Shown: positions 4,569-54,987 of the stretch, piece by piece
Layout: each line of letters starts with the position of its first letter
Numbering within the stretch: the stretch's first letter is position 1
Source of the DNA: Thermoplasmatota archaeon
GTDB lineage: Archaea; Thermoplasmatota; E2; JACPAO01; JAHFTW01
DNA length: 62,910 bases
Assembly: GCA_041581335.1 (NCBI GenBank)
Contig: JBFIDG010000001.1
Coordinates: 1 to 62,910, forward strand
Direction of reading: 5' to 3'
Position numbers and translations under genes: made by a program
The notes under the pieces: generated by a model
The model's database searches: none
Told to the model about the DNA's origin: nothing
Seen by the model: only the letters and a program-made list of their open reading frames with translations

Positions 4569-4650
4569 CGCGGCCAGGACGGGCATATCCGTTTGTGCCA
4601 AGGAAGCGGCGCCAGGCCCGGCCCTGTCCAGGGGTCCGCCTCCTGTTGGC

Positions 4651-4713
4651 CACCCCTGCACTTCCGATGCAGCTCGAAAAGGTGAACATGTTCGTGTGCC
4701 ATTCGTAAATGTC
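4651..4713 (+). promoter_or_regulatory. Conserved intergenic module, copy A: ORB-like half-site plus GAACATGTTC palindrome element
   Basis: 4651 CACCCCTGCACTTCCGATGCAG; 4683 TGAACATGTTCGTGTGCCATTCGTAAATGTC. It lies 40-100 nt upstream of the aceB copy 2 start. Confidence 0.5.
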
Positions 4714-8477: not shown

Positions 8478-10184
8478 TCACGGTGCCGGCTGGCGCGCGT
8501 CGCCCCCCACGCTGGCGACGGGAGGCGGCGTGGCCGGCAGCTCCACCCAGAAGCAGGCCCCTTTGCCGGCGCCTTCGCTCATCGCGCCGATGGTGCCGCC
8601 CAAGGCCTGCGTCAAGGTCTTGCAGATGTACAACCCCAGCCCCGTGCCGGGGATGCGTGGGTCGTCGTGGACCTGTCCGAACGGCAGGAACAGATGTTTG
8701 AGTCCATCCGGCCCTAACCCGACGCCGGTGTCACGGACTTCGATCCGCACCTTGGCCTCGGCTGGCGCCACGGCCACGGTCACAGCGCCTCCACGCGGCG
8801 TGAACTTGAGAGCGTTGCTGACCAGGTTGGTCATGACCTGGGCAAGCCTGTCAGGATCCGCCCAGGCGACGGCAGGCCCCTCCATGTCGAGCGCCAACGA
8901 GACCTCGGCGGCCTGCGCGGACGCGGCGAAGGTCTCGACGAGGTCCGTGAGCTCTGGCACAAGGTCGACCTCCCGGGCCGAGACGCGGACGTCCCCCCGC
9001 TGTAGTCGAGCCACGTCCAACATGTCCTGCACCAAGCCCCCTAGGCGGTCAAGGTTGCGCTCAAGGAGCCCGAGGGCCCGAGGACGCCCCTGCCATTCGT
9101 CTCGCAGCACGGCGAACTGCAACTTGATCGGGGTCAGGGGGGTGTTCAGCTCGTGGGCGGCAGAATTGATGAAGCGCGTGCGGAACTCGTCGAGCTCCTT
9201 CAGGCGGTCGATCTCCATCTGCTGCTCGTGGGCCAGTGTGCGGGCCCGCTCGGCTTCGAACTGGACCGTGATGTCACGGGCGGCCACGACGCGGGCCGGC
9301 ATGCCCCGATACTCGATGGGGCGTGCCTGCACCATGACGCGCCGCTTCTCATCCCCCTGCCCGAGCCATAGTTCGTAGCTCTCATCCCGGGGGTTCGCCA
9401 GGCGGTCTTCCACAAGCTCGGCCGACGACGGGTCAACGAGGGTCCGCAGGTCGCTGCCCAGGAGCTCTTCGCGGCCCTTGCCTAAGAGCGCCGCGAAGGC
9501 CTCGTTGAATTCGAGGATGACGCCGTCCCGGTGGATGCAGATGCCTTCGAACGCGGCCTCCGTGAGGGCCCTGATGCGTTCCGCCTCTGCCACCATCATC
9601 TCCTGGTGCCGGACCTCCTGGGCGAGGTCCATGCGTTCCCGCACGGCCGCCTGCCATCGGTAGCCAAGGAGCATGCCAAGGACCCCGGTGACGGAGATGT
9701 AGGTGGCGCGTGCGGCGATGGTGGGCAGGTTCTCGGGCAGCACGTCGCCGGCCGCGACCAGCATGCTCGTGTCGGCGGCCATGTAGATCCCGGCCGCCAG
9801 AGCCACCATGCTGGGGCCGAAGCGGAAGACCACCGCGACGAGAGACAGTGCCCACAACCCGTAGAACGGGGAGAGGATGCCTCCAGTGGCGTAGAGCCAG
9901 AGCGCGATGAGCACGGAATCCGTCGCCAGCGTGTAGGCGCTGGTGCGCAGGATGTGGAACCGCTCATAGGGCCGGACCGTGACCACGAAGACCGCGTAGA
10001 ACGACGCGGCGGCGCAGATGATGAGCGCCAGCCGATGCTGTGGGTGGTCGTGCGGCATGACGCCCAGGTACAGCGCGACGTTGAACGCGATGATGGCGAA
10101 GCGGACCCAGGCGATGTCACGCTCGGCGGTGTACGCCTGCACGGACGTCGCGTCCCCAAGTCGTTCGTCATCCTCGGCCACCAT
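8478..10184 (-). CDS. Membrane sensor histidine kinase (multi-TM input, PAS-like, HisKA, HATPase_c)
   Basis: Has about 6 N-terminal TM segments, the H-box FINSAAHELNTPLT, and ATPase boxes NLVSNALKF, DTGVGL, GTGLGLYI. Start is ATG 10184 (MVAEDD) or the upstream alternative at 10259. No response regulator is adjacent. Confidence 0.8.
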   Translation of the reverse strand: MVAEDDERLGDATSVQAYTAERDIAWVRFAIIAFNVALYLGVMPHDHPQHRLALIICAAASFYAVFVVTVRPYERFHILRTSAYTLATDSVLIALWLYATGGILSPFYGLWALSLVAVVFRFGPSMVALAAGIYMAADTSMLVAAGDVLPENLPTIAARATYISVTGVLGMLLGYRWQAAVRERMDLAQEVRHQEMMVAEAERIRALTEAAFEGICIHRDGVILEFNEAFAALLGKGREELLGSDLRTLVDPSSAELVEDRLANPRDESYELWLGQGDEKRRVMVQARPIEYRGMPARVVAARDITVQFEAERARTLAHEQQMEIDRLKELDEFRTRFINSAAHELNTPLTPIKLQFAVLRDEWQGRPRALGLLERNLDRLGGLVQDMLDVARLQRGDVRVSAREVDLVPELTDLVETFAASAQAAEVSLALDMEGPAVAWADPDRLAQVMTNLVSNALKFTPRGGAVTVAVAPAEAKVRIEVRDTGVGLGPDGLKHLFLPFGQVHDDPRIPGTGLGLYICKTLTQALGGTIGAMSEGAGKGACFWVELPATPPPVASVGGDARQPAP

Positions 10185-10348
10185 GACCAGACCCGTAGAG
10201 AGCCTCCGGTTCCTTAAGCAGATGCCTGCGGCCTGGGGCCGGCGACCCTGCGCATTCAACCCTCTGCGTCCGACGACCCATTTTCCGCCGGCCCGTCAAC
10301 CGCCGCGACCCAAACCCCCATGTGGCTGCCCGTTCTAGGAGGACCTGG

Positions 10349-11296
10349 ATGGGTGTCAATCTCCGCGACCTCTTCGAGCAATACCCGGTCCCGGACGGCT
10401 GGTACGAGGGCAAGCGCATCGCCATCGACGGCCACAACACGGCGTTCCGCTACCTGACCACCATCCGCGGCAAGGATGGCGACGTGCTGCGGAGCAAGGA
10501 CACGGGCCGGGCGACGAGCCATATTCTGGGGTTCTTGGGGCTCATCCGACAGATGCGCGTGGCCGGCGCGGAGCCCATCGTCATCTGGGACGGCCCGGTG
10601 CACCCCCGCAAGTTGGCGACGGTGCAGGAACGCATCCGCAAGCGCGAGGAGAACCTGGCACGTGCCGAGGCCGCGAAGGAAGAGGGCGACATGCGCGAGT
10701 TCGCCCGCCTCATGCGGGGCAGCGTCTACTTCGAGCCCCAGATGATCGAGGATTGTACGCGCCTGCTGGAATCATTGGGCGTGGCGGTGGTCACGGCCGA
10801 TCATGACGGCGAACGCTACGCCAGCGCCTTGTGCCTGGAAGGCCACGCGGATGCCGTCGCCACGGAGGACTTCGATGCCCTCGTCGCTGGCGCGCCCCGC
10901 GTCCTGCGAAAGGCCGGCGGCCAGAATACGTTCCTCCACCGCCTGACGGACCTGGAGACCCATGGTCTCGAGACCTGGCAGCTGCGCCAGGTGGCCATTG
11001 TCTGCGGCACCGACTGGCACCCGGGCATCAAGGGCTTCGGCGCCAAGACGGCGGTCAAGGCACTGCAGGCCCATGACGACCTGCGCACGCTCTGGGACAG
11101 TGGGGCGACCCGCGCCCACAAGTTGGTGGCGCAGGGCGGCATGTCGTTGGAGACCTTCGACGACCTGGACGCTTTCATCGGCGACCTGCCCAAGCCGGAC
11201 GCTCCCAAGCGGACCAAGCCCTGCCCGGACATGGCCACCGCTACCGCCGACGAGATCGGCATCAACCACGACCGCGTCCTGGCCTGCTTCACGTAG
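10349..11296 (+). CDS. fen: Flap endonuclease 1 (FEN-1)
   Basis: N-terminus MGVNLRDL..IAIDGHN (XPG-N), acidic XPG-I block (DHDGERYA..TEDFDAL), and H3TH GTDWHPGIKGFGAKTA. The C-terminus DRVLACFT is only weakly PIP-box-like. Confidence 0.85.
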   Translation: MGVNLRDLFEQYPVPDGWYEGKRIAIDGHNTAFRYLTTIRGKDGDVLRSKDTGRATSHILGFLGLIRQMRVAGAEPIVIWDGPVHPRKLATVQERIRKREENLARAEAAKEEGDMREFARLMRGSVYFEPQMIEDCTRLLESLGVAVVTADHDGERYASALCLEGHADAVATEDFDALVAGAPRVLRKAGGQNTFLHRLTDLETHGLETWQLRQVAIVCGTDWHPGIKGFGAKTAVKALQAHDDLRTLWDSGATRAHKLVAQGGMSLETFDDLDAFIGDLPKPDAPKRTKPCPDMATATADEIGINHDRVLACFT

Positions 11297-11402
11297 TGCC
11301 GCGACGGCACGTCGGACGCCGCCCCGGCCGTTGGGGCATGGCCCGCGACCGTCGCCCCACCACTGCCGATGCGGACCCGGGCGTCCCGGCGCTCGCTCCA
11401 GG

Positions 11403-11697
11403 TGCATGCGCAACAAAGGGGTAGACCGACCTCTTACGACACCCCTTCATTTCCTGTGGAATACCGGACCTGTCCGGGGGGATCGATCATTCGCCGTCCA
11501 ATGGAAATGCTGCCAAGGCGGGTCGCAGAAGGTCTCCGGGAGGTGGATCATCCCAAACTGCTTCCCTAGTTGCATCCCATCCAGTCGTAAGGCCGACCGA
11601 ATCGGTGGCCAAAGCCACCAGACGAAGCATGCACGGACCCCTTTACAGCGCAATTGGTAACAAACCCTCTTTTCGACCCCTTTACTTCCGATGGAAC
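11403..11697. promoter_or_regulatory. Cluster I of ORB-like repeats (dyad TTCC-N3-GGAA plus G-string)
   Basis: Plus-strand sequences: 11403 TGCATGCGCAACAAAGGGGTA; 11441 ACCCCTTCATTTCCTGTGGAAT; 11497 TCCAATGGAAAT; 11636 GACCCCTTTAC; 11675 GACCCCTTTACTTCCGATGGAAC. Both orientations are present. Confidence 0.5.
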
Positions 11698-11698
11698 T

Positions 11699-13444
11699 GT
11701 GATCAGATGGTCCCGGCACGGCCCGGTTTCCTGGCACAACAGCCATGACGCCACCGATCTTGCCGCAGTCGTGCGTGCCATCGTCAATGCCCGCGTCCAC
11801 ACGATGGAGACCCCCAGCGCCGTGACAGACGGCATCGCCTGGGACCACGACACCATCGTCGCCCTGGGTCGCGGCGACGTCGAAGCCTGGGCGAAGCTCC
11901 ACGACGCCCCCCTGGAGGACCTGGGCGGCCGGGTGGTGATCCCCGGGTTCGTCGACGCCCACATGCACTTCCTGCACGTCGGCGTGAAGCGCACCCGACC
12001 AGACCTGCGGGGCGCCAAGAGCCGCGCCGAGGCGCTGGCCCGGGTCAAGACCTGGTTAGAGGCCCACCCCGGCGACGGCCCGGTCACCGCGGAAGGCTGG
12101 GACGAAGCCGATTGGGGCGACGACGAGCCCCCGACCCGCGCCGAACTGGACGCGATCACGGACCGCCCCATGGTGCTACGGCGGATCTGCGGCCACATCG
12201 CGGTGGCCAACAGCGCCGCGTTGCCCGGCATCAAGGCCCGCTGGCCAGACGACCGAGTGGATGAGACCACCGGGATCCTGCTGGAAGAGCCCAGCCTCTA
12301 CCTCAACGAGGCCATGCCGGCCGACGACGAGACACTGGACCGCGCCGTCGAGGCCGCCTGCCGCGTGGCCCACCAGGTCGGCGTCACGGCCCTTGGCGAT
12401 TACGAACAACTCCCGTTCCGCGCCGCCTTGCTCCGCGCCGCCCGTGACGGCCGGCTCACCGTCCGGGTCCAATGCAGCACCTACGCCCAGGCCCTGGACG
12501 CCATCCGACTGGAAGGCTTCCGCACCGGCCGCCCCCTGCGGGCTGCAGGGCCAGATGAGGTCGGTATCCCCATGGCAGGCAACCCCGACGAGGCGCCCGA
12601 TGCCCACGTCATCGAGGACCCGGTCTCCATGTTCCGCGACGGTGGCCTCAAAGTGTTCCTGGACGGCAGCCTGGGCGGCCACACCGCCCTGATGCTGGAG
12701 CCATACTGCGACAAACATACGCACGGGCGCGCCAATTGGACCGACGCGGAGCTGGATGCCGCGTTCTCCAAGGCGGCCGCCGCAGATATCCAGATCCACG
12801 CCCACGTCATCGGGGATGGCGCTGTCGAGCAGGGTCTGCAGGCGTTCGAACGCCTGGTGGCCGACCACCCTGAGCACAGCCACATCCACCCGTGGGCCCC
12901 GCACCTACCGGGCGCTCCCCAGGCAAAGCGCCGACCCTTGGCCCATCGCTTCGAGCACTACGAGATCGTCCACGACGAACAGGTCGCCCGCACCGCGAAG
13001 CTCGGCATCTGGGCCAGCAGCCAACCCAACTTCGTCGGTGCCTGGAGCGCCAAGGGCGGCATGTACGAGGGACGCATCGGCGACCGCTTCGTCTTGAACA
13101 ACCGCTTCCAGACCTTCACGAAGGCCGGACTGCGCATCGCCTTCGGGAGCGACGGTATGCCGTTCGGGCCCCTGTACGGGATCCGTTCGGCGACCCAGCA
13201 CCCGGTGGAAGCCGAACGCATGAGCGCCGCCGAGGCGGTCTGGCACTACACCCATGAAGCGGCGGTCTCGATGGGCTTGCCCGTCGGACGTCTGACGCCG
13301 GGGCGCCCAGCCGATCTGCTGATCCTGAACGTCACGGAACTGATCGATCCAGAGACCTGGATCTTCGACGAGGTCGTCGGCGCCGGTGAGACCCACCACC
13401 GCGGCGACCGACCCATCATCAGCGATGATGACGTCGTCCTGTGA
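11699..13444 (+). CDS. Metal-dependent amidohydrolase (YtcJ-like, Amidohydro_3)
   Basis: Contains the PGFVDAHMHF HxH metal site, IHAHVIGDGA and AFGSDG blocks. The start is uncertain. The ORF opens at 11654, but its first 15 codons overlap an ORB-like repeat, so GTG 11699 or a later GTG is preferred. Confidence 0.7.
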   Translation: MIRWSRHGPVSWHNSHDATDLAAVVRAIVNARVHTMETPSAVTDGIAWDHDTIVALGRGDVEAWAKLHDAPLEDLGGRVVIPGFVDAHMHFLHVGVKRTRPDLRGAKSRAEALARVKTWLEAHPGDGPVTAEGWDEADWGDDEPPTRAELDAITDRPMVLRRICGHIAVANSAALPGIKARWPDDRVDETTGILLEEPSLYLNEAMPADDETLDRAVEAACRVAHQVGVTALGDYEQLPFRAALLRAARDGRLTVRVQCSTYAQALDAIRLEGFRTGRPLRAAGPDEVGIPMAGNPDEAPDAHVIEDPVSMFRDGGLKVFLDGSLGGHTALMLEPYCDKHTHGRANWTDAELDAAFSKAAAADIQIHAHVIGDGAVEQGLQAFERLVADHPEHSHIHPWAPHLPGAPQAKRRPLAHRFEHYEIVHDEQVARTAKLGIWASSQPNFVGAWSAKGGMYEGRIGDRFVLNNRFQTFTKAGLRIAFGSDGMPFGPLYGIRSATQHPVEAERMSAAEAVWHYTHEAAVSMGLPVGRLTPGRPADLLILNVTELIDPETWIFDEVVGAGETHHRGDRPIISDDDVVL

Positions 13445-13780
13445 CGGATCGCTGGACACGCCCGCGCGGCCAGGCGCCGGCCATCGGCGGCCGTGGATAC
13501 GACCCGTGCCAGAGCCATCGATCCAGCGGAGGCCCTGGACGGCCAACGCTGGCTCGGCCCAGACCGACACCCGATGACAAGGGCGGGGCTACCCAGACAT
13601 TGGCCCGAGCCACCCAAGGAAGCGTCAGGACCTTGGTGACCACTGCATCCTGTGGAAAGTGGGCAGCCATTGGAACCGGACCAAAACAGGCCCTAAACAC
13701 CCCTTGAAGACCTCCCCGCAGACCCCCTCCGAGGAGAGACCCCCTCATTTCGCGTGGAAGCCCCGCAACACCTAGGGCCC

Positions 13781-13920
13781 TCCAAAAAAGCGCTTCATCT
13801 GTGAGCAAAATCACCGGTAAACCCTTTTCTTACCAACCCCATCAACACGCAGAGGCTATTCTTCTTCCTCCTCTATCTCTCCTTCTTCCTCCTCTACACT
13901 TTTTTCGACGTTCTACACGC
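13781..13920. other. Low-GC (~46% by hand count) strand-asymmetric polypyrimidine tract; candidate duplex-unwinding element or promoter region
   Basis: I counted 65 G+C in 140 nt, in a window that is otherwise visibly GC-rich. The plus strand is almost purine-free across 13861-13905. Confidence 0.45.
13861..13896 (+). repeat. Two perfect 15-nt direct repeats CTTCTTCCTCCTCTA separated by 6 nt
   Basis: Read directly: copies at 13861-13875 and 13882-13896, with spacer TCTCTC, followed by a T6 run. Confidence 0.9.
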
Positions 13921-14209
13921 AGCCATGGGGTTGGGGGTATGGCGCTTCTGCCAACCACAATCAGGTGGCACCGGGGCCAGACACGATCTGGAGCCGTGCG
14001 GGATGGCGGTGCTCCATAGGCATCGAGGGGCCGCGGATCGGGGATTCATCGGCAAGGCGCGAAGAAATCAATGGAGGGGTCAAGGATCGTCAGCACGTCA
14101 GCCATCAGCGGGCCGGGCTTGCGGCGCCGTGCCGGTCCCAGGTCTCCCAGAGGAGCGGGTAATCCGATTCGGCACGGTTTTGCTTGGGTCGGGACCTTGC
14201 CGGCTAGCC

Positions 14210-15775
14210 ATGGCTATCCAGCGCGCCGCGCCGCTGCCGATCCCGACCGAAGAAGCCGCCCGTCTGCGGGGCAGCCTCGCTAAGGAGTACGGTGCGGAAG
14301 TCTGGGAAGGGCCAGAGCGCCGCGTGCTCTTGATCCGCGTCCCGCGGGCGGAGCCTGATCCGGTCAACGACGTGGAAGCGGCGGTCGAGCATCTTCAGCC
14401 GGCGGACGTGGAGGATCTGACGCATTGCCTGCTGATGGGAGACCAACGGGTCGCCCAGGTCTACGTCCGGCCCCTGCAGGACCTGATGCGGGAACGTCTC
14501 GCCTTCGATGCCCGGCAGGCCGACCACTGGCGCCAGGAGCTCCCTGGGCAGCTCAGCCACAGCCTCTTCCAGGCAGCCGATGATCCCCGTCGCCGCTGGC
14601 GCCTTGCCATCCGTCTGCCCGTGGCGTCTGTGGCCGAGGTGGAGGAAGAGCACTTCGACGACCTGGTGGAAGGCATCGGGCCGTTGCTGGACACACCGCG
14701 CTTCAAGCAACTGGTCGCCGTCTATTTCATCGCAGCCAATGACCACCTCAGGCTCCAGGCCAATGTGTTCCTCAAAGAGATGAAGGACAAGTGGGTCAGC
14801 GAGGAGCGCCTCCGGCGCAAGGCCGAAGAAGAACGCAAGGCGGAGGAGACCACTCGTTCCCGGGCAGCGGCCGAACGCCGCCGCCAGGAAGAGGAGCGCA
14901 TCGCGCTGCTGCGCGAAGTGGACCGCAAGATGGCGCGCTACCAGGCCGAGAAGGCCGTCGGAGGTCCGTTGCCCGCGACCGACCCTACGACGCCTGGCCG
15001 GGCCGGTGCTGGACCGATCCGCGACCTCCTGGCCGAGAGCGAGACCACGCTGACCGCGCGAGACTCCGACCGGGCGCGCCATCCCCGTGGACCCTGGACC
15101 GTCACGGAGGTCGAGCAGCCAGAGATCCCGCACAACAGCGCGGAGGCCCTGCTGGCCCGCGCGGCCGCAGAGAGCGCGGACGTCGCCAAGGCGCTGTTCC
15201 GCGATGCACCGCCCAGGGACGCCACCAAGTACGACACCGACGCGGTCGTGGCCGAGTTGGTGGACAAGCCCAAGGGCCTGGCCGACCGCCTTGATGCGTT
15301 GCGCGCCCGTGTGGACAATGCCCTGGAGCAGGCGCCGACGCGCAGCACGAGCCGCGATGTGCCCACACGCACCTCGGCACCTCGGCGTGCCCACGTGCCC
15401 ACGCGCCGGACCGAGCGTGTCCGCGAGCCCTTGGGCGGCCGCGAGAACGACGTCGGCCGCGGCGACCCCAAGACCCGTCTACGCCGGCGCCTGGAGGCGT
15501 CCGGATACGATGTGTTGGATGCGCCGACGATCCCTGGTCACCATGTCGATCTGGCCGCCGAGCGGCCGGATGGGGATCCGCAGCGCGTCGTCGCGCGCGT
15601 CGTGGCGAAGCTCGATGTGTCGACGGCCAAGCAGCTACTCAAGACGGCCCGCGAGTTGGACGTGGACCTGGTGCTCTGCGTGGCCGAGCATCAGGATGCC
15701 GAGGCACGCCGGATCCTCGTTGCGACGAAGGTCAAGTTGGCAAGCCCTGGAGACATCGCCGCGTACCGTTTCTGA
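14210..15775 (+). CDS. Orphan protein: unknown N-terminal domain, Arg/Glu-rich coiled coil, disordered linker, C-terminal Mrr-like (PD-(D/E)xK) nuclease-fold domain
   Basis: GC3-rich frame from ATG 14210 (MAIQRAAPLP). The upstream part of ORF 13925..15775 looks non-coding. The C-terminus GYDVLDAPTIPGHHVDLAAE..RVVARVVAKLD..DLVLCVAE resembles a restriction-endonuclease (Mrr_cat-type) core. Confidence 0.55.
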   Translation: MAIQRAAPLPIPTEEAARLRGSLAKEYGAEVWEGPERRVLLIRVPRAEPDPVNDVEAAVEHLQPADVEDLTHCLLMGDQRVAQVYVRPLQDLMRERLAFDARQADHWRQELPGQLSHSLFQAADDPRRRWRLAIRLPVASVAEVEEEHFDDLVEGIGPLLDTPRFKQLVAVYFIAANDHLRLQANVFLKEMKDKWVSEERLRRKAEEERKAEETTRSRAAAERRRQEEERIALLREVDRKMARYQAEKAVGGPLPATDPTTPGRAGAGPIRDLLAESETTLTARDSDRARHPRGPWTVTEVEQPEIPHNSAEALLARAAAESADVAKALFRDAPPRDATKYDTDAVVAELVDKPKGLADRLDALRARVDNALEQAPTRSTSRDVPTRTSAPRRAHVPTRRTERVREPLGGRENDVGRGDPKTRLRRRLEASGYDVLDAPTIPGHHVDLAAERPDGDPQRVVARVVAKLDVSTAKQLLKTARELDVDLVLCVAEHQDAEARRILVATKVKLASPGDIAAYRF

Positions 15776-15911: not shown

Positions 15912-17780
15912 TTATTTCCAGGCGACGGCCTTCGAGACGACGGTCTGGCCGGCGTCGTCGGTGGCACGGAAGGTCACCATGGCGCCCGGAGCGACGTAGA
16001 AGCTCTTGGCGTACGTGTCCCAGTTCGTGGCGGGGAGCGTCGTGTAGCTACCGGAGCCGACGCGGGCCTCGACCTTGGCGATCTTGCTCTTGGAGTCCAC
16101 GGCGGTCTCGACCCAGTAGGCGTTGCCGACGGCCTTCGGGGTGAAGGTCGCGGTGAAGCTGGGGGCCGGAGCCGGGGCGGTGCCCCAGGCGATGGTCTTG
16201 GAGACGACGGTCTGGCCGCTGCCGTCGGTGGCGCGGAAGGTGACCGTGGAGCCCGAGGGGACCGGGATGCTCTTGGCGTAGGTGCCCCAGCTCGTGGCAG
16301 GGAGCGTCGTGTAGGCACCGTCGTTGACGCGCACTTCGACCTTGCTGACCTTGCTGCTGGATTCGACCGCAGTCTCGACCCACCATTGGTTGCCGACGGC
16401 CTTCGGCGTGAAGGTCGCGGTGAAGCTGGGCTTGGGGGCAGGTTGCGGGGCGGGCTGCGGGGCAGGGGCACTGCCGCCGAGCCAGCTCATCGAGTCGCTG
16501 GTGACCGTGGCGCCGGTGCTGCTGGTGGCCTTGAAGACCATCGAACCAGGGGTGGCGTGGAAGCTCTTGGCGTGGGTGCCCCAGCTCGTGGCCGGGAGCG
16601 TGACCATCGGGCCACCATTGTGGCTGGCCTCGACCTTCGTGATCTTTTCGCTGCCCTGGACCTTGACTTCGACCCACCATTCGTTGACGTTGCTGGGAAC
16701 GCTGAACGAGGCGGTGAAGGCAGCCGGGGCCGGCTTGGGCTCAGGCGCAGGGGCGGGGGCGGGGGTCGGAGCAGCGTTGCTGCGCTCAGCCTTCACACCA
16801 GCCACCCACACATGACCAGCAGCCTTCAAATCACTCGTACCAGACCAAGACAGACCCCAATGACGCTCAGCCTCACCGTAGTAATTGGCCAGATTCATGT
16901 TCGGACTGTCATTCCAGCTACGGTACACGATCGCCATCACACCAGCCGACTTCAACTCACCAAGATTGTCAAAGAACTGCTGCAGTTCGTTGCTCTGCTT
17001 GCTAAGGTAAGCGGGTTCGGGGTAGCTGCTGAGAGCCAGATCTTGGATGAAGATCGGCTTACCAAACAAAGACTGAAGGTACTGCGCGTTGCTGAGGGTG
17101 GTCTCGTACAGGTCATCGTAGTGAGCACTCGAGTCCTTGGTGGAGCCGCGCATGCCTTGGATACCGATGTAATCACTGGCAGCCGCAGTGCGGTCGAAGT
17201 TACCCCAGTAGTTCTTGCCCCACGAGCCGAGGCTCATGACGATCTTGGCGTTGGGGTAGCCTTCGTGGATCTTGTCGGCCATGTCGGCCATGTAGCCATC
17301 AAAGGGCTCGTACGATTGGATGCCGCCTTTGTTGAATTCGGATTCCATGAAGATGACGACTTCTTCGCCGCCCATCTTGGCGTTGAGGTGTTGGATGAGT
17401 TGGTCGGCGAGGGTGTTCCAGCCGGCTTTGTTCTTGTGGCTGTTGTGGAGGCTGCTCCAGCAGCCGTTTTCGACGCAGTCGGGGGTGATGTCGTCGCCCC
17501 AGTAGTAGAAGTGGATGGCGGGGGTGACGCCGGCGTTTTTCATGGTGGTGAGGCTGTTGTCGGGTCCGCCCCAGCCGCTGTTGAGGGTCCAGGGGCCGAT
17601 CCAGAAGGTGCCGTAGTCGGGGGCGACGCCGTTTTGGGTCTGGACGTTGATGGCGCCGGCTTCCATACCGAAGCCGATGGGGGTGTCGGTGGTGGCTGCT
17701 CCTGCGCCGGGGGCGATGAGGACGGCGAGTCCGGCGGTCAGGATGGCAAGGGTCGTGAGGATGGTTTTCAGGCGGGTCAT
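15912..17780 (-). CDS. Secreted glycoside-hydrolase-like enzyme (TIM-barrel type) with three C-terminal carbohydrate-binding-like repeats
   Basis: Has a signal peptide MTRLKTILTTLAILTAGLAVLIAPGAGA. The catalytic-like region contains FMESEFNK (an NE/E acid-base-like motif). Three ~85-aa repeats (..WWVE..V.KVE....G....LPATSWGT.AKS..) are joined by Pro/Ala linkers. The family assignment is not certain. Confidence 0.6.
   Translation of the reverse strand: MTRLKTILTTLAILTAGLAVLIAPGAGAATTDTPIGFGMEAGAINVQTQNGVAPDYGTFWIGPWTLNSGWGGPDNSLTTMKNAGVTPAIHFYYWGDDITPDCVENGCWSSLHNSHKNKAGWNTLADQLIQHLNAKMGGEEVVIFMESEFNKGGIQSYEPFDGYMADMADKIHEGYPNAKIVMSLGSWGKNYWGNFDRTAAASDYIGIQGMRGSTKDSSAHYDDLYETTLSNAQYLQSLFGKPIFIQDLALSSYPEPAYLSKQSNELQQFFDNLGELKSAGVMAIVYRSWNDSPNMNLANYYGEAERHWGLSWSGTSDLKAAGHVWVAGVKAERSNAAPTPAPAPAPEPKPAPAAFTASFSVPSNVNEWWVEVKVQGSEKITKVEASHNGGPMVTLPATSWGTHAKSFHATPGSMVFKATSSTGATVTSDSMSWLGGSAPAPQPAPQPAPKPSFTATFTPKAVGNQWWVETAVESSSKVSKVEVRVNDGAYTTLPATSWGTYAKSIPVPSGSTVTFRATDGSGQTVVSKTIAWGTAPAPAPSFTATFTPKAVGNAYWVETAVDSKSKIAKVEARVGSGSYTTLPATNWDTYAKSFYVAPGAMVTFRATDDAGQTVVSKAVAWK
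15915..16735 (-). repeat. Three tandem ~260-270-nt coding repeats (binding-module repeats of the hydrolase)
   Basis: The last two units (about 15915-16170 and 16190-16445) are clearly similar at the nucleotide level. The third (about 16478-16730) is more diverged. Confidence 0.8.
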
Positions 17781-18097
17781 TGGCGTACCAATCACGCACC
17801 GAGTCCAGGCGGGCCGAGGCCCCGTTCCATGCCCAGTGCGTAAGTGGCCATCTTCTCCTGAATCACTTAAGGCGAGCCGATTTTCTTATTATGGAGAACC
17901 GGTTTTCGGAAGGTTATACTTGAATATGACTGAAAGCCAAGTGGGCCCTGAAGGGCCAGGGACCTGCTGTTTCCGGGGTCTATGGACAAAGGGCCAGTGC
18001 CCCGTAGGGCCCCCAAGGTGAAGGCGGACCCGACGGGCCGGACACCCATGACCGTCCCGGCGTGCTGAAATGCCCGACCGCCCGTGCAAAACCATCC

Positions 18098-18763
18098 ATG
18101 CCTTTGTCGACCGCGTGCTCATCCCTGGACGCCCTGCTTGACGGGGGCCTGGAAGAGGACGCCATCACCCTCGTCTTCGGTGAGGGTGGAAGCGGCAAGA
18201 CGAACCTGGCGCTGCAATGCTCGCGGCAGGTCGTCCTGGCGGGCAAGAAGGTCGCGTACGTGGACACGGAAGGGGTCAGCCCCCGTCGCATGGAACAGGT
18301 GTTCAGTGCCGCCGGCGACCCCGCCGAGATGATGGACTCGATGCTGTTCTTCTCGCCCTTCGACATCATCCAACAGGAACGGATGGTCGAGAAGACCGCC
18401 CTGTTGAAGGGGCTTGGGCTGATCGTGGTCGACTCGATCAACATGCACTATCGTCTGCACATCGACGACCAGGACAAGGAGAAGGAGGCCGGTCGCAGCC
18501 TGTACAAGCAACTGCACCACCTCACCAACTTCGCCCGCCAGGCCGATGTCCCCGTCCTCGTCACGGGGCAGGTCTACGGCGGTGAGGACACCACACAACC
18601 GTTCGCACGGCGCGTCATGGAGCACCTGGTCAAAGCGCTCGTCAGGTTCGAGAAACGCCCCGACGGCACCCGCCGTGCCACGGTCCTCAAACACCGCAGC
18701 ATCGAAGATGGTCGGCAGGCGCGCTTCCGCATCGGAGCGCACGGCCTCGAAGCCGTGTCGTAG
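18098..18763 (+). CDS. radB: DNA repair and recombination protein RadB
   Basis: MPLSTACSSLDALLDGGLEEDAITLVFGEGGSGKTNL (Walker A) and Walker B LIVVDS. It is about 220 aa with no N-terminal HhH domain, so RadB rather than RadA. An alternative upstream GTG lies at 18062. Confidence 0.85.
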   Translation: MPLSTACSSLDALLDGGLEEDAITLVFGEGGSGKTNLALQCSRQVVLAGKKVAYVDTEGVSPRRMEQVFSAAGDPAEMMDSMLFFSPFDIIQQERMVEKTALLKGLGLIVVDSINMHYRLHIDDQDKEKEAGRSLYKQLHHLTNFARQADVPVLVTGQVYGGEDTTQPFARRVMEHLVKALVRFEKRPDGTRRATVLKHRSIEDGRQARFRIGAHGLEAVS

Positions 18764-18909
18764 CATGGTCTTCTGGCACGACAGAGCGCCGGCCGCACTC
18801 GGTCGGCTGAAAGGTCCTGTCGCCAAGCCCTCTCGGGGGTTCCCCCCGGGGTCGCGTAGGGGCGATGCCCGAAACCTTAAGGTGTGGGAGGCCCCCACCC
18901 TCTTTTGCT

Positions 18910-19773
18910 ATGCACAACGGGACGCTGGCCCTTGCAGCCCTTGGACTCCTCTTGGTCGCCCTACCGGCGTCGGCGCAGCCGGACCCCGGTCTCCCCGGTC
19001 TCGACGAGATCCCCCTGATCGGTGACGAGCTCATCGACGTGGAAGGTGCCCAGCAGCAGCTGTCCGACCTGGTCGGCGGCGAAGAGCCCGCGCAGCCCGA
19101 CGAGCCCGCGCCGCCTGCCAAGAGCAAGGAGCCAGGCTTCGCCGACCGTGTGGCCCAGGCCATCGGCGACGACGCCGTCTCGTTCTCCCTGGCCGGTGTC
19201 GCCACGGCGGTCCTCACCGCTGGCGGCTTCGCCCTTGTCACCCGCTACATCTCCCCCAAAGAGGCACTCAAGAACCCGCAGCGTGCCATGCTGTATGGTT
19301 TCGTCCGCGCCACCCCGGGGGTCCACCTCAAGCAGCTCTCCGAGGAGTTCGGTATGAAGACCTCCAGCATCCTCTGGCACATCCGCAAGCTGGAGTCCGC
19401 CGAGCTCGTCAAGTCGGAACGCGTCAACGGCTTCCGCGTGTTCTACCCCGTCGAAGGCGGCGTAGAGATCCGCAAGGTCAGCCGCGCGCTGGCCACGCTG
19501 CAGAACGACAACGCCCTGCACATCTACCAATACATCGAACGCCACCCGGGCACCCCCGCCGCCGCCATGGCGGAGCGCCTGAGCCTCCACGGTGGCACCG
19601 CGCGCTGGCACCTGCGCAAGCTGCGCGACCATGGACTGCTCGACGAACTCGTCCAGTCTGATGGCTCGCGCTTCTACCCCACACCACTGGGGAACCGTGC
19701 TCTGGAGGCCCGTGAGGGCCGTCCCGTGGACGCTCCGGCACGCCCTGTCGGAACGCCCGCACTCTCCGAATGA
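18910..19773 (+). CDS. Membrane-anchored transcription regulator: signal peptide, acidic/Pro-rich ectodomain, one TM, two ArsR-like winged-helix domains
   Basis: MHNGTLALAALGLLLVALPASA signal, TM VSFSLAGVATAVLTAGGFALV, then two wHTH units (..HLKQLSEEFGMKTSSILWHIRKLESAELV.. and ..AAAMAERLSLHGGTARWHLRKLRDHGLL..). Confidence 0.65.
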   Translation: MHNGTLALAALGLLLVALPASAQPDPGLPGLDEIPLIGDELIDVEGAQQQLSDLVGGEEPAQPDEPAPPAKSKEPGFADRVAQAIGDDAVSFSLAGVATAVLTAGGFALVTRYISPKEALKNPQRAMLYGFVRATPGVHLKQLSEEFGMKTSSILWHIRKLESAELVKSERVNGFRVFYPVEGGVEIRKVSRALATLQNDNALHIYQYIERHPGTPAAAMAERLSLHGGTARWHLRKLRDHGLLDELVQSDGSRFYPTPLGNRALEAREGRPVDAPARPVGTPALSE

Positions 19774-20561
19774 AACACATCCTACTCGTCGTCGCCGTGC
19801 TGTGCGTCCCGGTCGCCGTAGCGCAGCTCGAACTGCCCGAGAACCCCTTGGACCCCGTCCGACCGGACCCCGTCGGGCCAGGGCTGGAGCCAGGCCAAGA
19901 GGACCCTGCCCCTGAGGCGGGCCTCCCCGGCGTCGAAGAGGGCGGCAGCGGCATCGACTGGGGCAGCGGCCTCGTCTGGGGCATCGGCGGTGCCGGCGTC
20001 GGTATCGTGGCCCTCGCGGGCCTCGCGTACTACCTAGGCGTCGGCGGCCTACGGCACATCGACAAGCACAACGTCTTGGAACACCCGATGCGCCAGTCCC
20101 TGCTCGACGTCGTCGAGACCAGCCCTGGCGTCCACCTGCGAGACCTGGCACAACGCCACGAGACCGCCGTGACAAACACCCAGTGGCACCTGCGGAAGCT
20201 CGAGATGGCCGGTCTGGTCAAGACGCAGAAGGTGCAGGGCCGCAGGCTCTACTACCCGACCCGCGGCGGCGCGCAGGCCAAGGAACAGGCGATCCAGAAC
20301 GCTGCCATGCAGAACCCCAACGCGCAGCGCATCCTGACGTACCTGGAATCCCATCCCGGCACCAACCAACGCAGCCTGGCCGAGGCGCTCGACATGAACC
20401 CCGGCACGGTGCGCTGGCACCTGCGCAAGATGGAGTCTGCCAACATGGTGCGCTGCGTCCAGGACGGGACCCAGAGCTGCTACTTCCCCGTCGTCCAAGA
20501 CGCCATCGGCTCCTGGAACAACTCAAGCAGCGAAGGCGTCGCCGTCGAAGAACGGACCTGA
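19770..20561 (+). CDS. Paralogous membrane-anchored double winged-helix regulator
   Basis: Same architecture: MKHILLVVAVLCVPVAVA signal, Pro/acidic segment, a Gly-rich TM, then two wHTH units (..HLRDLAQRHETAVTNTQWHLRKLEMAGLV.. and ..QRSLAEALDMNPGTVRWHLRKMESANMV..). Its start overlaps the upstream stop (ATGA). Confidence 0.65.
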   Translation: MKHILLVVAVLCVPVAVAQLELPENPLDPVRPDPVGPGLEPGQEDPAPEAGLPGVEEGGSGIDWGSGLVWGIGGAGVGIVALAGLAYYLGVGGLRHIDKHNVLEHPMRQSLLDVVETSPGVHLRDLAQRHETAVTNTQWHLRKLEMAGLVKTQKVQGRRLYYPTRGGAQAKEQAIQNAAMQNPNAQRILTYLESHPGTNQRSLAEALDMNPGTVRWHLRKMESANMVRCVQDGTQSCYFPVVQDAIGSWNNSSSEGVAVEERT

Positions 20562-20621: not shown

Positions 20622-21017
20622 ATGGAGGCGTACCACATCGTCCAGGAAGGCGAGGCCTGGGTCTGGCGGCTCTACAATGGCGACACCCCGGTCGCCCAGG
20701 GCATCCTGTATGCGGCACTCGACAACGTCGAGCGTGACCTGAAGGTCGTCTGCGAAGGCGACGCGCCCCCGTCGGTGTTCGCCGTGGCCCCTGACAAGTG
20801 GGCGTGGGCTTTCCAGCGCGAAGGCCAACGCCTTGGCACGACTCTGCGGGCGTTCCCGACCCGCGATGAGGCGTTCGATGCCTGCATCCGGGCCCTGGCC
20901 ATAGGGCGCCGCGCCGCGCGGGCCCCGTGGCGCTGGCCGGACGTGCCGGCGGGTGGGGTGGCGGAGCCAGGCTCCCTGGTCCCTAGAGGCCCTTCATCAT
21001 CTCGCGCAAGCCGTTGA
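20622..21017 (+). CDS. Small protein with two YegP/DUF1508-like repeats (tentative)
   Basis: The pair MEAYHIVQEGEAWVWRLYNGDTPVAQG..Y and FAVAPDKWAWAFQREGQRLG..F.TRDEA resembles tandem YegP repeats. The 3' end overlaps the convergent gene by about 35 nt. Confidence 0.4.
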   Translation: MEAYHIVQEGEAWVWRLYNGDTPVAQGILYAALDNVERDLKVVCEGDAPPSVFAVAPDKWAWAFQREGQRLGTTLRAFPTRDEAFDACIRALAIGRRAARAPWRWPDVPAGGVAEPGSLVPRGPSSSRASR

Positions 21018-21834
21018 GGATGATCTGCGTGTGCACGATGTCCTCCCGGTTGTACTCGATGAGGTCCTTCTTGATCGTCGCACTGCGGTTGGTGCGGAAC
21101 GACCTGTACAAGCGGAGGGCGTGGTAGCCGTCCTTGACCTTCAATTGCGGCTTCTTGTAGCCGAAGAACTGCGCGACCTTCTCGGACTTGAACTTGGAGA
21201 CCGGCAAGTAGACCCGCTGGGACTCCGGGTTGCCGGTGTAGACGACCTCTTGCTGAAGGTCGAACCAGTTGACCTTGTTGACCCACTTGGGGTCGATGCC
21301 GTATTTCTCACTGGCGCGGCGTAGCTGCACGGTGTCGCTGCTGGCGCCACCCCAGGTCACCATGGTGGCGCCGGTCTCGCATAGGGCCTTGAAGTCCCGC
21401 AGGAGCTTCTCTTGCCCGGCGCGGGTGTGGTCGAACCAGCTCGTGGTCTTGTTGGTCTCGTGGTCCAACATGCCGTACAGGAAGATCTCCGACTTGGGCC
21501 CGTCGAACTCCAGGTCCATGTGGATGATGGGCTCTTGCAGGTCGTAGATGCGTGGGTCGGCGGCGTAGACGATGGCCTCGCCTTTGGCGTGCGCTTCAGC
21601 AAAACCTTGCAGAAGTGGCAGCTGCCCCAGGAACCCCTCGTCGCCTTCGAACTTGCCGCTGGCACGAAGCGCCTCGATATCGGCCTTCCACAACTTCTCC
21701 ACGGTGTCGACGCCGGCGGCCCGCAGCCGTTCGGCTCGCCCTTCCTTGACCATGGGTAAGTCGGTGAGTTCGGTTCCCAACGGTCGGCCAACGATGCTTG
21801 ACGATAAACCCCCTGCCTTTGTCGGAGGGGGCAT
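20983..21834 (-). CDS. RNase H-fold 3'-5' exonuclease-like protein (YprB/PolB-exo-like) with N-terminal helix-hairpin-helix
   Basis: HhH-like LTDLPMVKEGRAERLRAAGVDTVEKL, plus acidic motifs IHMDLEFDG, VTWGGASSD and EYNREDIVHT. Start is ATG 21834 (MPPPTK) or 21753. The upstream part of the ORF is unlikely to be coding. Confidence 0.55.
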   Translation of the reverse strand: MPPPTKAGGLSSSIVGRPLGTELTDLPMVKEGRAERLRAAGVDTVEKLWKADIEALRASGKFEGDEGFLGQLPLLQGFAEAHAKGEAIVYAADPRIYDLQEPIIHMDLEFDGPKSEIFLYGMLDHETNKTTSWFDHTRAGQEKLLRDFKALCETGATMVTWGGASSDTVQLRRASEKYGIDPKWVNKVNWFDLQQEVVYTGNPESQRVYLPVSKFKSEKVAQFFGYKKPQLKVKDGYHALRLYRSFRTNRSATIKKDLIEYNREDIVHTQIILNGLREMMKGL

Positions 21835-21922
21835 TGCTGCGGCGAGGGGCCGCTGCGCAGGCACCCGCATCCTTGTGTGTGGCGACCAACATCGCCAAGT
21901 GGCGTGACGTCGATGCCCCGGT

Positions 21923-22327
21923 ATGCGTTGGCTTGCCGTGGGCCTGATCGTCACTCTGGTCGGCTGCGCCGGGCCGCCGAGTGCGGCGGGGCCATGCGCA
22001 GCGTACCACACGCCGGGGGATGCGTTGGTGGTCCAGTTCCAGGGGCCCTCCGAGGAGAGCTACGAAGAGTGGGCCATCCCACCATGGTCAGCGTACGACG
22101 TCGAGGTGGTCCGTCACGCCCGCAACGGCGATGCCGTCTGGACGGTGGACCCCGCCATTGTCGATGGCTGCATGAGTGCCCCGTTGGATGGGCCGGGGGA
22201 ATACCGGCTGACCGCGAGGGCACCCGTCGCGGAGGACGACTATTGCTGGTTCTCCGCTTGGAAGGAGTTCTCGTACGATGGCGGCCTCGTGGAGATCGAC
22301 GTCTCCGTGGGCGCCGTGTGTGCGTAG
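21923..22327 (+). CDS. Small secreted lipoprotein, unknown function
   Basis: MRWLAVGLIVTLVGCAG has a lipobox. 134 aa in a GC3-rich frame. Confidence 0.5.
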   Translation: MRWLAVGLIVTLVGCAGPPSAAGPCAAYHTPGDALVVQFQGPSEESYEEWAIPPWSAYDVEVVRHARNGDAVWTVDPAIVDGCMSAPLDGPGEYRLTARAPVAEDDYCWFSAWKEFSYDGGLVEIDVSVGAVCA

Positions 22328-44996: not shown

Positions 44997-45365
44997 GTGC
45001 GTCCACGCATCTGGGTCATCCTCGCAGCCGTCGTCCTCGCCCTCGGCTTCGGCTTCACGGGTCGCGCGACCGAGACCAGCGCCCTCGACAGCTTGTCGGG
45101 CCTTGCCTGGCTCGTCGCCATCATCGCAGCCATCTCGCTGCTGCCGTTCTGGTCGAAGGTCCTGCCCAAGATCGAGCCCATGCCCGGTCTGTTCAAGCGC
45201 CCCGCCGAGGGCGAACGCTGGTGTGTGCAGTGCGGCTCGCCCACGGTCAAGCTCGCCGCATGCCACGTTTGCGGCGCAGAACCCAAGTTGCCCAAGCAAA
45301 AGGCCCCCAAGAAGCCCAAGGAAGCGAGCAAAGTGGGCAAGAAGGCGGCCAAAGGCGACACCTAG
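44997..45365 (+). CDS. Small membrane protein with zinc ribbon and Lys-rich tail
   Basis: Two TM helices, then CVQCG..CHVCG, then the tail KLPKQKAPKKPKEASKVGKKAAKG. Confidence 0.45.
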   Translation: MRPRIWVILAAVVLALGFGFTGRATETSALDSLSGLAWLVAIIAAISLLPFWSKVLPKIEPMPGLFKRPAEGERWCVQCGSPTVKLAACHVCGAEPKLPKQKAPKKPKEASKVGKKAAKGDT

Positions 45366-45451
45366 GCGCCCGCAACGGCCGCTATGGGGCGAACCAAACG
45401 CAGCGTCTATGTAGCCCGTGTCTGATTGCTGGGCAGGGATGCAAGGCGCTC

Positions 45452-46435
45452 ATGGAGTTCCTCCAGCGTGATGACCGCAAGGTCCACCTTCTGACCCGAG
45501 GCAATGTGGATGGCATCGTCTCGGCGGCCCTTTTCCTCGCCCAGAACCCGGCCACCAAGGTCAGCTTCGTTCCTTCGGGAGACATGGCTGTCGATGTGCT
45601 GCGCAAGGACATCTCGTCCGAACGCTTCTACCTCGTCGACCTGGGGCTGACGCCCCGCTTCATCAAGACGCTCAACGACAAGGCGAAGACGCAACAACAC
45701 GTCGTCTACCTTGACCACCACCAACAATCAGAGGTGCTCTGGGATGAGCTCGACCCACGCACGGAGGGCGTCATCCACCAAGGCATCAGTGCCGCCGGCA
45801 TCGCCTACGAATACCTGGGCCTCAACGGGGCCCACAAACACTTGGTCGCACTGGCCGACCATGTCGAGTACTGCCCGAGCCGACTCCTGGAAGACACGGC
45901 GCGCGTCGTCGGCCTGCCCCGCATCGAAGAGGAGGCCCGCATGCTGGACCACGCGTGGCGCTTCAAGGTCGAAGACGACCGCTTCCGCCTCACCGCCGCC
46001 CGCCACCTCTCCAAAGGCATCTGGCCCAGCGAGGTCTCCGAGATCAAGGGCCGCTACTTGCAGATGCAGATCGAACAACGCTGGGAGCGCGCCCTGGATC
46101 GGGTCCGCGACCGCGTCGAGATCAAACACAACGTGGCGCTCTTGAAGTTCGGGCGTCACAAGCCCAGCCTGTTCGGCTTTGGGAGTCGGGCCCTCAGTCA
46201 GGTCGCCCGCGACGCCGGTGCCCACGTGGCCTTGATGGTCAACCGGCGCCCAGAGCAGACGGCGCTCAGCATGCGCCGCACAGGCGACGACGATTCACTG
46301 AACCTCGGCGAATTCGTCGCCGAGTTCACGGCGCACCACGGTATCGTGGGAGGGGGCCATCCCCATTCAGCCGGAGCGAAGATCCCGACCAACAAGGTCG
46401 GACAATTCATCAAGGAAGTGATGTGTCTTGCATGA
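45452..46435 (+). CDS. DHH/DHHA1-family phosphoesterase
   Basis: Contains NVDGIVSAA, LVDLG, YLDHHQ (DHH motif) and C-terminal GGGHPHSAGA (DHHA1). The upstream part of ORF 45221.. overlaps the previous gene in another frame. Confidence 0.7.
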   Translation: MEFLQRDDRKVHLLTRGNVDGIVSAALFLAQNPATKVSFVPSGDMAVDVLRKDISSERFYLVDLGLTPRFIKTLNDKAKTQQHVVYLDHHQQSEVLWDELDPRTEGVIHQGISAAGIAYEYLGLNGAHKHLVALADHVEYCPSRLLEDTARVVGLPRIEEEARMLDHAWRFKVEDDRFRLTAARHLSKGIWPSEVSEIKGRYLQMQIEQRWERALDRVRDRVEIKHNVALLKFGRHKPSLFGFGSRALSQVARDAGAHVALMVNRRPEQTALSMRRTGDDDSLNLGEFVAEFTAHHGIVGGGHPHSAGAKIPTNKVGQFIKEVMCLA

Positions 46436-47860: not shown

Positions 47861-48040
47861 GTGGTTGTCTCCTACCCGTCTTGTTCCGGCCGAGGCCGGG
47901 ACTCCCGTGTTAGACGCAGGGCGGAAGGTCGCGAAGCGAGCTTTCGGCCACACGCCAGGGATGGAGGGCAGGTCTGCCGACTCGGAGGTTGTATATCAAG
48001 CGTGGCCCAGCTTTGTTTCCCGTGGAACCCGTCGGCTGGA

Positions 48041-54781: not shown

Positions 54782-54987
54782 GGCGCGGCGAGTCGACGGT
54801 CGTATTTCAGGGGTGCGGGCGCAGACGGGCCCACGCCGCCGCCGCAGCGACCACCCCAACCTCCAAAGGAAACAAGGGTGTGTTATCAGGTTTTCATCTT
54901 GCATCGGTATCGTGGTGGCTTTCAACGCCATGCCGGATCGCGCGGCTCCACAGCGGGGGGTTCCAGACCCGCCGCGATGCGCATCCC

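Follow-up and report, generated by a model that had tools for sequence, protein, structure and literature searches.

The window analyzed here is the complete 62,910-bp contig JBFIDG010000001.1 of a Thermoplasmatota archaeon. In two intergenic gaps, separated by an amidohydrolase gene, it carries a cluster of origin recognition boxes (ORBs), and in the second gap two of these boxes face each other across a low-GC spacer that is a candidate DNA unwinding element (DUE). Judging from the ORBs and their polarity, the low-GC spacer, the conserved arrangement and the occurrence of the same motif beside Orc1/Cdc6 genes in other archaea, the locus is probably an active chromosomal replication origin of the Orc1/Cdc6-ORB type, located at a distance from its initiator gene. 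Its design would be the standard one for this type; less common are the initiator-distal position and the conserved linkage to fen (flap endonuclease), to the leader of a ribonucleotide reductase gene and to radB. An earlier sequence-only reading of this DNA had arrived at a candidate initiator-distal origin, an interpretation supported by the identity of the ORBs and by their conserved ORB(-)/DUE/ORB(+) layout.

The Window Contains Five Full ORBs and One Mini-ORB

Searching reference genomes with the FEN protein yielded only metagenome-assembled genomes of Thermoplasmatota, one of them in a record labelled 'uncultured Halobacteriales', with 93% FEN identity to the nearest relative. The comparison set comprised 22 related loci (L001-L022), and metagenome stretches such as L067, L072, L088, and L138 served as controls.

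Five full ORBs, three of them strong and two weaker but conserved in position, and one mini-ORB lie within 2.5 kb of the window. The strong copies form one 24-nt repeat family in a repeat search, and the ORB reads on the minus strand, where the motif has the consensus gTTCCAynGGAArynrrGGGGT, i.e., a TTCC-N3-GGAA dyad followed 5 nt on by a one-sided GGGG(T) string. They are located at 11439-11462 (ATTCCACAGGAAATGAAGGGGTGT, reading aTTCCACAGGAAATGAAGGGGTGT on the minus strand; 32.7 bits), at 11674-11697 (GTTCCATCGGAAGTAAAGGGGTCG, minus strand; 34.9 bits), between an RNA-like block described below and the amidohydrolase start, and at 13737-13760 (CTTCCACGCGAAATGAGGGGGTCT, minus strand; 27.5 bits). 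When scored with a matrix whose weights were built from the copies of other genomes alone, with the window sequences excluded, they still reached 29.9, 34.3, and 24.0 bits, respectively, compared to a best score of 19.7 bits in 200 shuffles of the window (mean maximum 11.1). The copy at 13737-13760 is the left ORB of the inverted pair and points its dyad towards the low-GC spacer. The right ORB of the pair, GTTCTACACGCAGCCATGGGGTTG at 13910-13933 on the plus strand, combines a degenerate dyad with an intact G-string and scores 18.3 bits. The other weak full ORB, GGTGCATGCGCAACAAAGGGGTAG at 11401-11424 on the plus strand (12.8 bits), has its G-string facing that of the next ORB and is kept in both closest relatives, L001 (15.0 bits) and L013 (17.4 bits). 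The mini-ORB TTTCCACAGGATG at 13646-13658 on the minus strand consists of the dyad only (14.7 bits), lacks a G-string and is conserved in L001.

Every string quoted in the sequence-only reading is present where it had been placed, but its tally of at least ten copies or half-copies comes down to the three strong, two weaker and one mini-ORB given above. The copy it listed at 11403 is the conserved weak full ORB, and that at 13647 holds as a conserved dyad but not as a motif with a G-string. In contrast, the copy at 11497 has a full-motif score of -8 bits and a dyad score below 13 bits, while those at 14012 (4.3 bits) and 14067 (-9 bits) have no conserved counterpart in the closest relative and were taken as chance matches. 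The site at 14012 had also been named as the partner of the copy at 13738; the conserved partner is the ORB at 13910-13933, which that list lacked. Another inner pair (CCAACCCCAT...ATGGGGTTGG, 13827/13931) was discarded because of a poor score and a G-string that L001 does not share.

The Motif Is Linked to Orc1/Cdc6 Genes in Other Archaea

The euryarchaeal ORB consensus reads 5'-GTTCCAGTGGAAAC-AAA----GGGGG-3', and a mini-ORB core and a G-string have been described for it (Norais et al., PMC1868953); the window motif agrees with this consensus. The exact degenerate pattern TTCCAYNGGAARYNRRGGGGT was found in at least 120 metagenome stretches from JGI. Most of these are contigs of 25-45% GC, in which a G-rich 21-mer is not expected to occur by chance. 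On 22 of the stretches, an open reading frame (ORF) with a Walker A motif lies at most 3 kb from the pattern, and all 10 of the Walker A ORFs that were submitted to Pfam carry the Cdc6_C, Cdc6_lid, and AAA domains of Orc1/Cdc6. A profile built from nine of these proteins retrieved 23 Orc1/Cdc6 ORFs among the metagenome matches listed. Moreover, the near-identical 24-mer GTTCCACCGGAAACGAAGGGGTGG lies beside orc1 on L088 and L138, contigs whose ORBs resemble the published halophile ORB. Because the same motif adjoins Orc1/Cdc6 genes elsewhere and nearly the same 24-mer stands next to orc1, the window repeats are, judged by their sequence, genuine Orc1/Cdc6-type ORBs and more than ORB-like. The dyad-plus-G-string resemblance to ORBs noted in the sequence-only reading is borne out by both the published consensus and the Pfam assignments. 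The motif was also considered as a promoter element (TATA-like CCCTTTAC) and rejected as such, since its orientation flips between clades and copies are found at the 3' ends of genes.

An Inverted ORB Pair Encloses the Low-GC Spacer

The inverted pair consists of 13737-13760(-) and 13910-13933(+), with both dyads facing inward across an intergenic spacer of 149 nt (13761-13909). This candidate DUE has a GC content of 49%, in a contig with 67% GC, and includes a polypyrimidine tract as well as runs of A6 and T6. The most GC-poor 150 nt of the entire contig (13784-13933, 46.7%) overlap with it, and the tract at 13781-13920, previously put at about 46% GC, measures 45.7%. A small ORF spanning the polypyrimidine tract (13801-14019) was dismissed because, judged by eye, it seems to lack the GC bias that genuine genes of the contig show at third codon positions.

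ORB(-)/DUE/ORB(+) has been described as the minimal functional archaeal origin (Ori-Finder-Arch preprint, bioRxiv 10.64898/2026.08.15.744077), and the layout in the window agrees with this pattern. The ORB-DUE-ORB arrangement claimed in the sequence-only reading therefore stands for 13737(-)/13910(+), and it is conserved across related genomes. Among the matches listed for the metagenome control loci, neighboring ORBs 90-300 nt apart show the (-,+) polarity in 20 of 28 cases and the (+,-) polarity in just one of 28; the spacers of these pairs measure 93-258 nt and have a GC content averaging 0.15 below that of the locus, and Orc1 lies within 0-373 nt of nine of the 20 (-,+) pairs. The pair in the window has the same polarity as these orc1-linked controls.

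Inside the spacer, the 15-nt sequence CTTCTTCCTCCTCTA occurs as two perfect direct repeats on the plus strand (13861-13875 and 13882-13896, offset 21 nt). Both the repeats and the T6 run had been pointed out before, and direct repeats of this length were reached in none of 200 shuffles. Ten of 15 taxa (the window, L001, L002, L005, L006, L007, L009, L015, L016, and L018) have the longest exact direct repeat of their spacer at a similar point, with a start 94-108 nt in and copies offset by 11-30 nt; in six of these 10 taxa the repeat is longer than in shuffled sequences at p ≤ 0.025, with p = 0.045 in a seventh. Its sequence differs from taxon to taxon, being for example TTTCGTCCTACTC in L001 and TTGATTCATCTC in L005. 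The kept position together with the taxon-specific sequence suggests that both repeat copies change together. Homopurine/homopyrimidine (TTC/GAA)n runs recur at the site of the spacer repeat.

Two 24-nt arms in inverted orientation, with some 150 nt of AT-rich DNA between them, could also represent the ends of a miniature transposable element, which they resemble in having a short AT-rich interior, or the stem of a structured RNA, and a structured RNA does exist in the neighboring gap. We regard the probability of this explanation as almost negligible. The pair occurs once per locus, in synteny, in more than 10 species, and its arms are conserved while the interior diverges, which is the opposite of what recent spread would produce. 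No similarity was found in PLSDB or in a phage collection, which speaks against both a mobile element and a plasmid origin. With regard to a stem, each arm keeps the ORB consensus, 14 of 24 positions are complementary in the window by hand count, and no Rfam family matches.

ORBs and Spacer Are Conserved across Related Loci

The sequence-only reading had suggested a matrix scan for enrichment, and such a scan over the window and the related loci (349 kb) returned 64 hits of at least 13 bits compared to a single hit in the reversed-sequence control. Over these 349 kb, copies of at least 24 bits are confined to the gaps around fen, the reductase gene, the amidohydrolase gene and the orphan gene that follows the pair, and are not dispersed over most intergenic regions; in the related loci, two such copies sit barely inside the called amidohydrolase ORFs.

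The copies occupy three sites. At site A, an ORB directly follows the fen stop codon in most related loci; in L007, where fen and a class II ribonucleotide reductase gene converge, it lies between their 3' ends. These ORBs sit where a promoter is not expected. At site B, the ORB is found between the conserved RNA-like block and the amidohydrolase start. In L006, a (CCA)n microsatellite of about 27 units (11530-11610) lies between the plus-strand ORB and the amidohydrolase start. Site C, between amidohydrolase and orphan, harbors the unit of ORB(-), 142-155 nt of low-GC DNA and ORB(+). This unit is present in the window and in L001, L003, L005, L007, L008, L009, L015, L019, L021, and L022, and in each of these 10 loci the right ORB keeps its position and orientation. 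The genomes concerned range in FEN identity to the window from 93% down to 41%, and their spacers have a GC content of 0.34-0.55 versus 0.61-0.72 for the whole loci. Amidohydrolase, ORB pair and orphan travel as a module, which is inverted as a block in L015 and L016. In the ancestral arrangement, the ORBs are spread over three gaps and the reductase gene is included.

The TTCC-N3-GGAA palindromes might instead be operators of an ordinary dimeric transcription factor, for example of the HVO_0163-type helix-turn-helix (HTH) regulators encoded at 18865-20561, with a coincidental likeness to ORBs. The palindromic core in intergenic DNA, the two winged-helix regulators among the conserved neighbors and the isolated weaker copies in other gaps fit this idea. 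We nevertheless consider it very improbable, because every strong copy has the one-sided G-string at a fixed spacing, which an ORB needs and a symmetric dimer does not, and because the same 21-nt pattern stands beside Orc1/Cdc6 genes of unrelated archaea. In addition, the leader-proximal copy flips its orientation between clades while its distance from the leader ranges from about 20 to 60 nt, and copies follow the fen stop codon or lie between convergent genes.

The ORB Cluster Is Distal to the Initiator Gene

The claim that no orc1/cdc6 gene is in view was confirmed by Pfam scans as well as by the Orc1/Cdc6 profile. No Orc1/Cdc6 domain was detected in any of the 30 window proteins scanned with Pfam, namely all called proteins of at least 275 aa plus radB, the second HTH regulator and an SDR protein. 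Likewise, the profile had no match among the six-frame ORFs of the window and L001-L022 (364 kb), while the controls were recovered. Because no orc1/cdc6 match was obtained in these loci, the ORB cluster of this clade is, as far as its sequence tells, initiator-distal, which is unusual but has precedent.

This absence is the first of several observations that weigh against an active origin. The initiator gene adjoins most described archaeal origins, adjacency of orc1/cdc6 or whiP being usual but not obligatory, whereas here an orc1/cdc6 gene is found neither in the 62.9-kb contig nor, in any of the 22 related loci, at a distance of up to about 10 kb. The right-hand ORB of the pair (13910-13933) has a degenerate dyad and reaches only 18 bits. 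The skew signal is weak: the curve of cumulative GC skew dips locally at 13-14 kb but reaches its lowest value at the right end of the contig. Third-codon-position skew is governed by the coding strand (-0.23), the strand-corrected side term at 13-14 kb amounts to +0.035 ± 0.018, a breakpoint at 58-59 kb fits marginally better than one at 13-14 kb, and the 63-kb contig is too short for this test. Finally, weaker isolated ORB-like sites are present elsewhere on the contig (4650, 48005, 54860, and 61084). One of them pairs with a TGTTAYCA box of the kind that precedes the reductase-type leader, and for this reason some ORB copies may have a regulatory rather than a replicative role.

Three of the isolated sites (4650-4673, 48005-48028, and 61084-61107; two of them intergenic) score 14-16 bits and lie outside the main cluster. 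The site at 4650 is absent from the homologous gap between the isocitrate lyase and malate synthase genes of relatives. These sites would be either chance matches or single initiator-binding sites.

A further explanation is that the ORBs are bound by a protein of the Orc1/Cdc6 family but that the locus does not fire. It could be a dormant origin, or the relic of one, that stayed in place after orc1 had relocated, or else a regulatory platform. In the latter case the initiator, or an Orc1 paralogue without initiator function, would control nearby genes of nucleotide metabolism and repair, among them the reductase leader, the orphan, and radB. Besides the lack of a nearby initiator gene, a non-firing locus is in line with an ORB that occupies the promoter region of the reductase-type leader in all arrangements and with the ORB-like site plus TGTTAYCA box upstream of a purine-synthesis gene (54860-54889). 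It also has parallels: the non-initiator Orc1-2 of Sulfolobales acts as a global regulator (PMC9738581) and Haloferax mediterranei possesses a verified dormant origin (PMC4595724). However, the pair lies between two co-directional genes, has a spacer of about 145 nt with a local GC minimum, and is kept in genomes with only 41-65% FEN identity. Such conservation of a fixed pair and spacer is what selection on an unwinding unit predicts and what an operator would not need. Furthermore, the ORBs at the fen 3' end have no promoter to regulate. We therefore judge a non-firing locus to be unlikely and favor the active origin.

An RNA-Like Block Links the Locus to Ribonucleotide Reductase

Part of the length of the first gap is accounted for, independently of ORBs, by a conserved block of about 155 nt (11520-11672, minus strand) that lies between ORBs, was identified in alignments and with profiles, resembles a structured RNA and is not itself an ORB element. 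It is nearly invariant among the window, L001 and L013 while its flanks diverge, and profiles detect it in at least 15 loci. Variable hairpins are swapped between genomes, as exemplified by GGTGGC-CAAA-GCCACC in the window, CCCCC-GA-GGGGG in L006 and GCACG...CGTGC in L010, and the G-U pairs favor the minus strand. In a model-fitted alignment, which leans towards the model, 90% of cells are paired and double changes occur in 13 of 23 pairs; none of 500 shuffles equalled this support and slid controls were much lower.

A class II ribonucleotide reductase gene, identified by Pfam, directly follows the block on the same strand in L007, L009, and L015-L019; the positions of the block include L007 5061-5179, L009 16331-16502, L015 about 14470-14660, L017 9750-9896, L018 15517-15659, and L019 18122-18282. 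By sequence comparison, the block of the window is homologous to this class II (B12-dependent) reductase leader. The window clade lacks the reductase gene at this locus and on the contig, yet it retains the block nearly unchanged. Whatever the arrangement, one ORB directly precedes the reductase-type leader. No Rfam family passed the gathering thresholds anywhere in the window, and for 11250-14260 and the L015 leader even a cutoff of E ≤ 10 brought up nothing credible. A cobalamin riboswitch, which the B12-box-like CCGGAGACCTKCTG and the B12-dependent reductase might suggest, thus receives no support from Rfam. The block is a candidate for a new cis-regulatory or stand-alone RNA and, as an uncatalogued RNA-like structure preceding genes for class II ribonucleotide reductase, is worth its own study.

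Two near-palindromic TTGnTAnCAA boxes (11654-11663 and 11697-11706, about 44-47 nt apart) lie upstream of the RNA-like block, and L006, L008, and L010 have such boxes as well. Elsewhere on the contig, TGTTAYCAR is matched only once, directly beside the ORB-like site CCTCCAAAGGAAACAAGGGTGTGTTATCAG at 54860-54889, upstream of a PurP-type purine-synthesis gene. Box and ORB-like site may constitute a nucleotide-metabolism regulatory module.

A Lineage-Restricted Orphan Protein Is Encoded beside the ORB Pair

The gene directly right of the ORB pair (14210-15775, plus strand) encodes an orphan protein with just 14 homologues in 5.8 billion clusters, and all examined homologues share synteny beside the pair. 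It has no Pfam match and no sequence match in the PDB. In the predicted structure (model pLDDT 77), an N-terminal domain is joined through a long coiled coil and a disordered linker to a C-terminal NucS/EndoMS-like domain. In the model, the C-terminal domain matches NucS/EndoMS (Foldseek E 5e-4), which backs the previous remark on a nuclease fold; the canonical (D/E)-x-K was not seen in the expected strand of this domain. The N-terminal 200 residues (pLDDT 91) gave no Foldseek match in the PDB better than E 0.06.

Conceivably, the origin is specified by two components, with Orc1/Cdc6 on the ORBs and the orphan as a lineage-specific factor that reads the spacer repeats, an idea that we put forward as a long shot. 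If it were true, an iteron-like layer would have been placed on an Orc1 origin, which might explain why the initiator gene is no longer adjacent.

Gene Neighborhood

The first gap (11297-11770, 474 nt) follows fen (10322-11296, plus strand; Pfam XPG_N and XPG_I), which is preceded by a histidine kinase gene (8478-10259, minus strand). Between the two ORB-bearing gaps lies the amidohydrolase gene (11771-13444, plus strand; Pfam Amidohydro_3, E 4e-67). Alignment with relatives indicates that it probably starts at the GTG at 11771. Of the gap lengths given earlier, the 765 nt of the second gap (13445-14209) are correct, whereas the first measures about 474 nt with this start and not about 350 nt. 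No tRNA was found in the region of the gaps. The replication and repair genes named as neighbors were both confirmed by Pfam, fen directly to the left and radB (18062-18763, plus strand; Rad51, E 1e-18) 4.1 kb to the right of the ORB pair. Downstream of radB, two HVO_0163-type HTH regulators are encoded on the plus strand (18865-20561).

Between orphan and radB, an unannotated gene of 627 aa (15912-17795, minus strand) stands out by its reduced GC content (0.59-0.65 over 16-18 kb), and Pfam gives just weak hints for it (DUF4249, Expansin_C). In L002 and L022, radB directly follows the orphan without this gene, which therefore appears to be a lineage-specific insertion. Other genes of DNA metabolism on the contig encode an RNase_H_2-superfamily protein (20983-22011), an Lhr-type helicase (38503-41265) and a DHH/DHHA1 protein of the RecJ/GAN-like type (45221-46435).

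Proposed Mechanism and Comparison with Known Origins

From archaeal origin biology (bioRxiv 10.64898/2026.08.15.744077; PMC3984812), the following steps can be proposed for the locus as an active origin. An Orc1/Cdc6 protein encoded elsewhere would bind each ORB, with its winged helix on the dyad and the initiator-specific motif of its AAA+ domain on the G-string. Two inward-facing complexes would then load MCM onto the spacer, which would melt first, and bidirectional replication would follow. The outlying ORBs would raise the local occupancy by the initiator and may tie its binding to the neighboring ribonucleotide-reductase-type promoter. Extra ORBs are also dispersed over several kb around the orc1-adjacent pair of L088 and L138, and in Pyrococcus abyssi Cdc6/Orc1 binds a 5-kb region around oriC in vivo (PMC1904270); the outlying ORBs of the window parallel both.

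The locus provides a concrete and testable candidate origin for an uncultured, high-GC clade of Thermoplasmatota for which experimental replication data are lacking. In this clade, the ORB cluster stayed linked to fen, the reductase leader, the amidohydrolase, the orphan, and radB rather than to orc1. Such initiator-distal linkage is useful knowledge for origin predictors that rely on adjacency and for coverage-based estimates of growth rates in metagenomes. The origin-adjacent orphan protein and the co-varying direct repeats within the unwinding element are also worth following.

With oriC1-type origins (Haloferax volcanii oriC1, Pyrococcus abyssi oriC and Sulfolobus oriC1), the window shares the ORB made of dyad and G-string, inverted ORBs around an AT-rich unwinding element, additional ORBs and mini-ORBs, and replication or repair genes as neighbors. 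It differs from them in that orc1/cdc6 is absent from the 62.9-kb contig, and from about 10 kb around the locus in relatives, in that its ORBs are divided over two gaps by the amidohydrolase gene, and in that the spacer carries taxon-specific direct repeats.

The nrdAB promoter of Escherichia coli carries DnaA boxes. There, as at the locus described here, an initiator site lies by a ribonucleotide reductase promoter, and by analogy such a site could couple the supply of deoxynucleotides to initiation. The two cases differ in the initiator family and the domain of life, and the reductase gene itself is absent in the window.

On two of the metagenome stretches, L067 and L072, the (-,+) pairs are flanked by housekeeping genes and have at least 3.9 kb free of Orc1 around them. 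A published case is the oriC of Hyperthermus butylicus, which has no adjacent initiator gene, and a 'Type III structure-match' class has been introduced for such cases (bioRxiv 10.64898/2026.08.15.744077). Like this origin, the window combines ORB(-)/DUE/ORB(+) and at least three ORBs with a missing adjacent initiator gene; unlike it, the window belongs to the phylum Thermoplasmatota and is set among the conserved neighbors fen, reductase leader, amidohydrolase, orphan, and radB.

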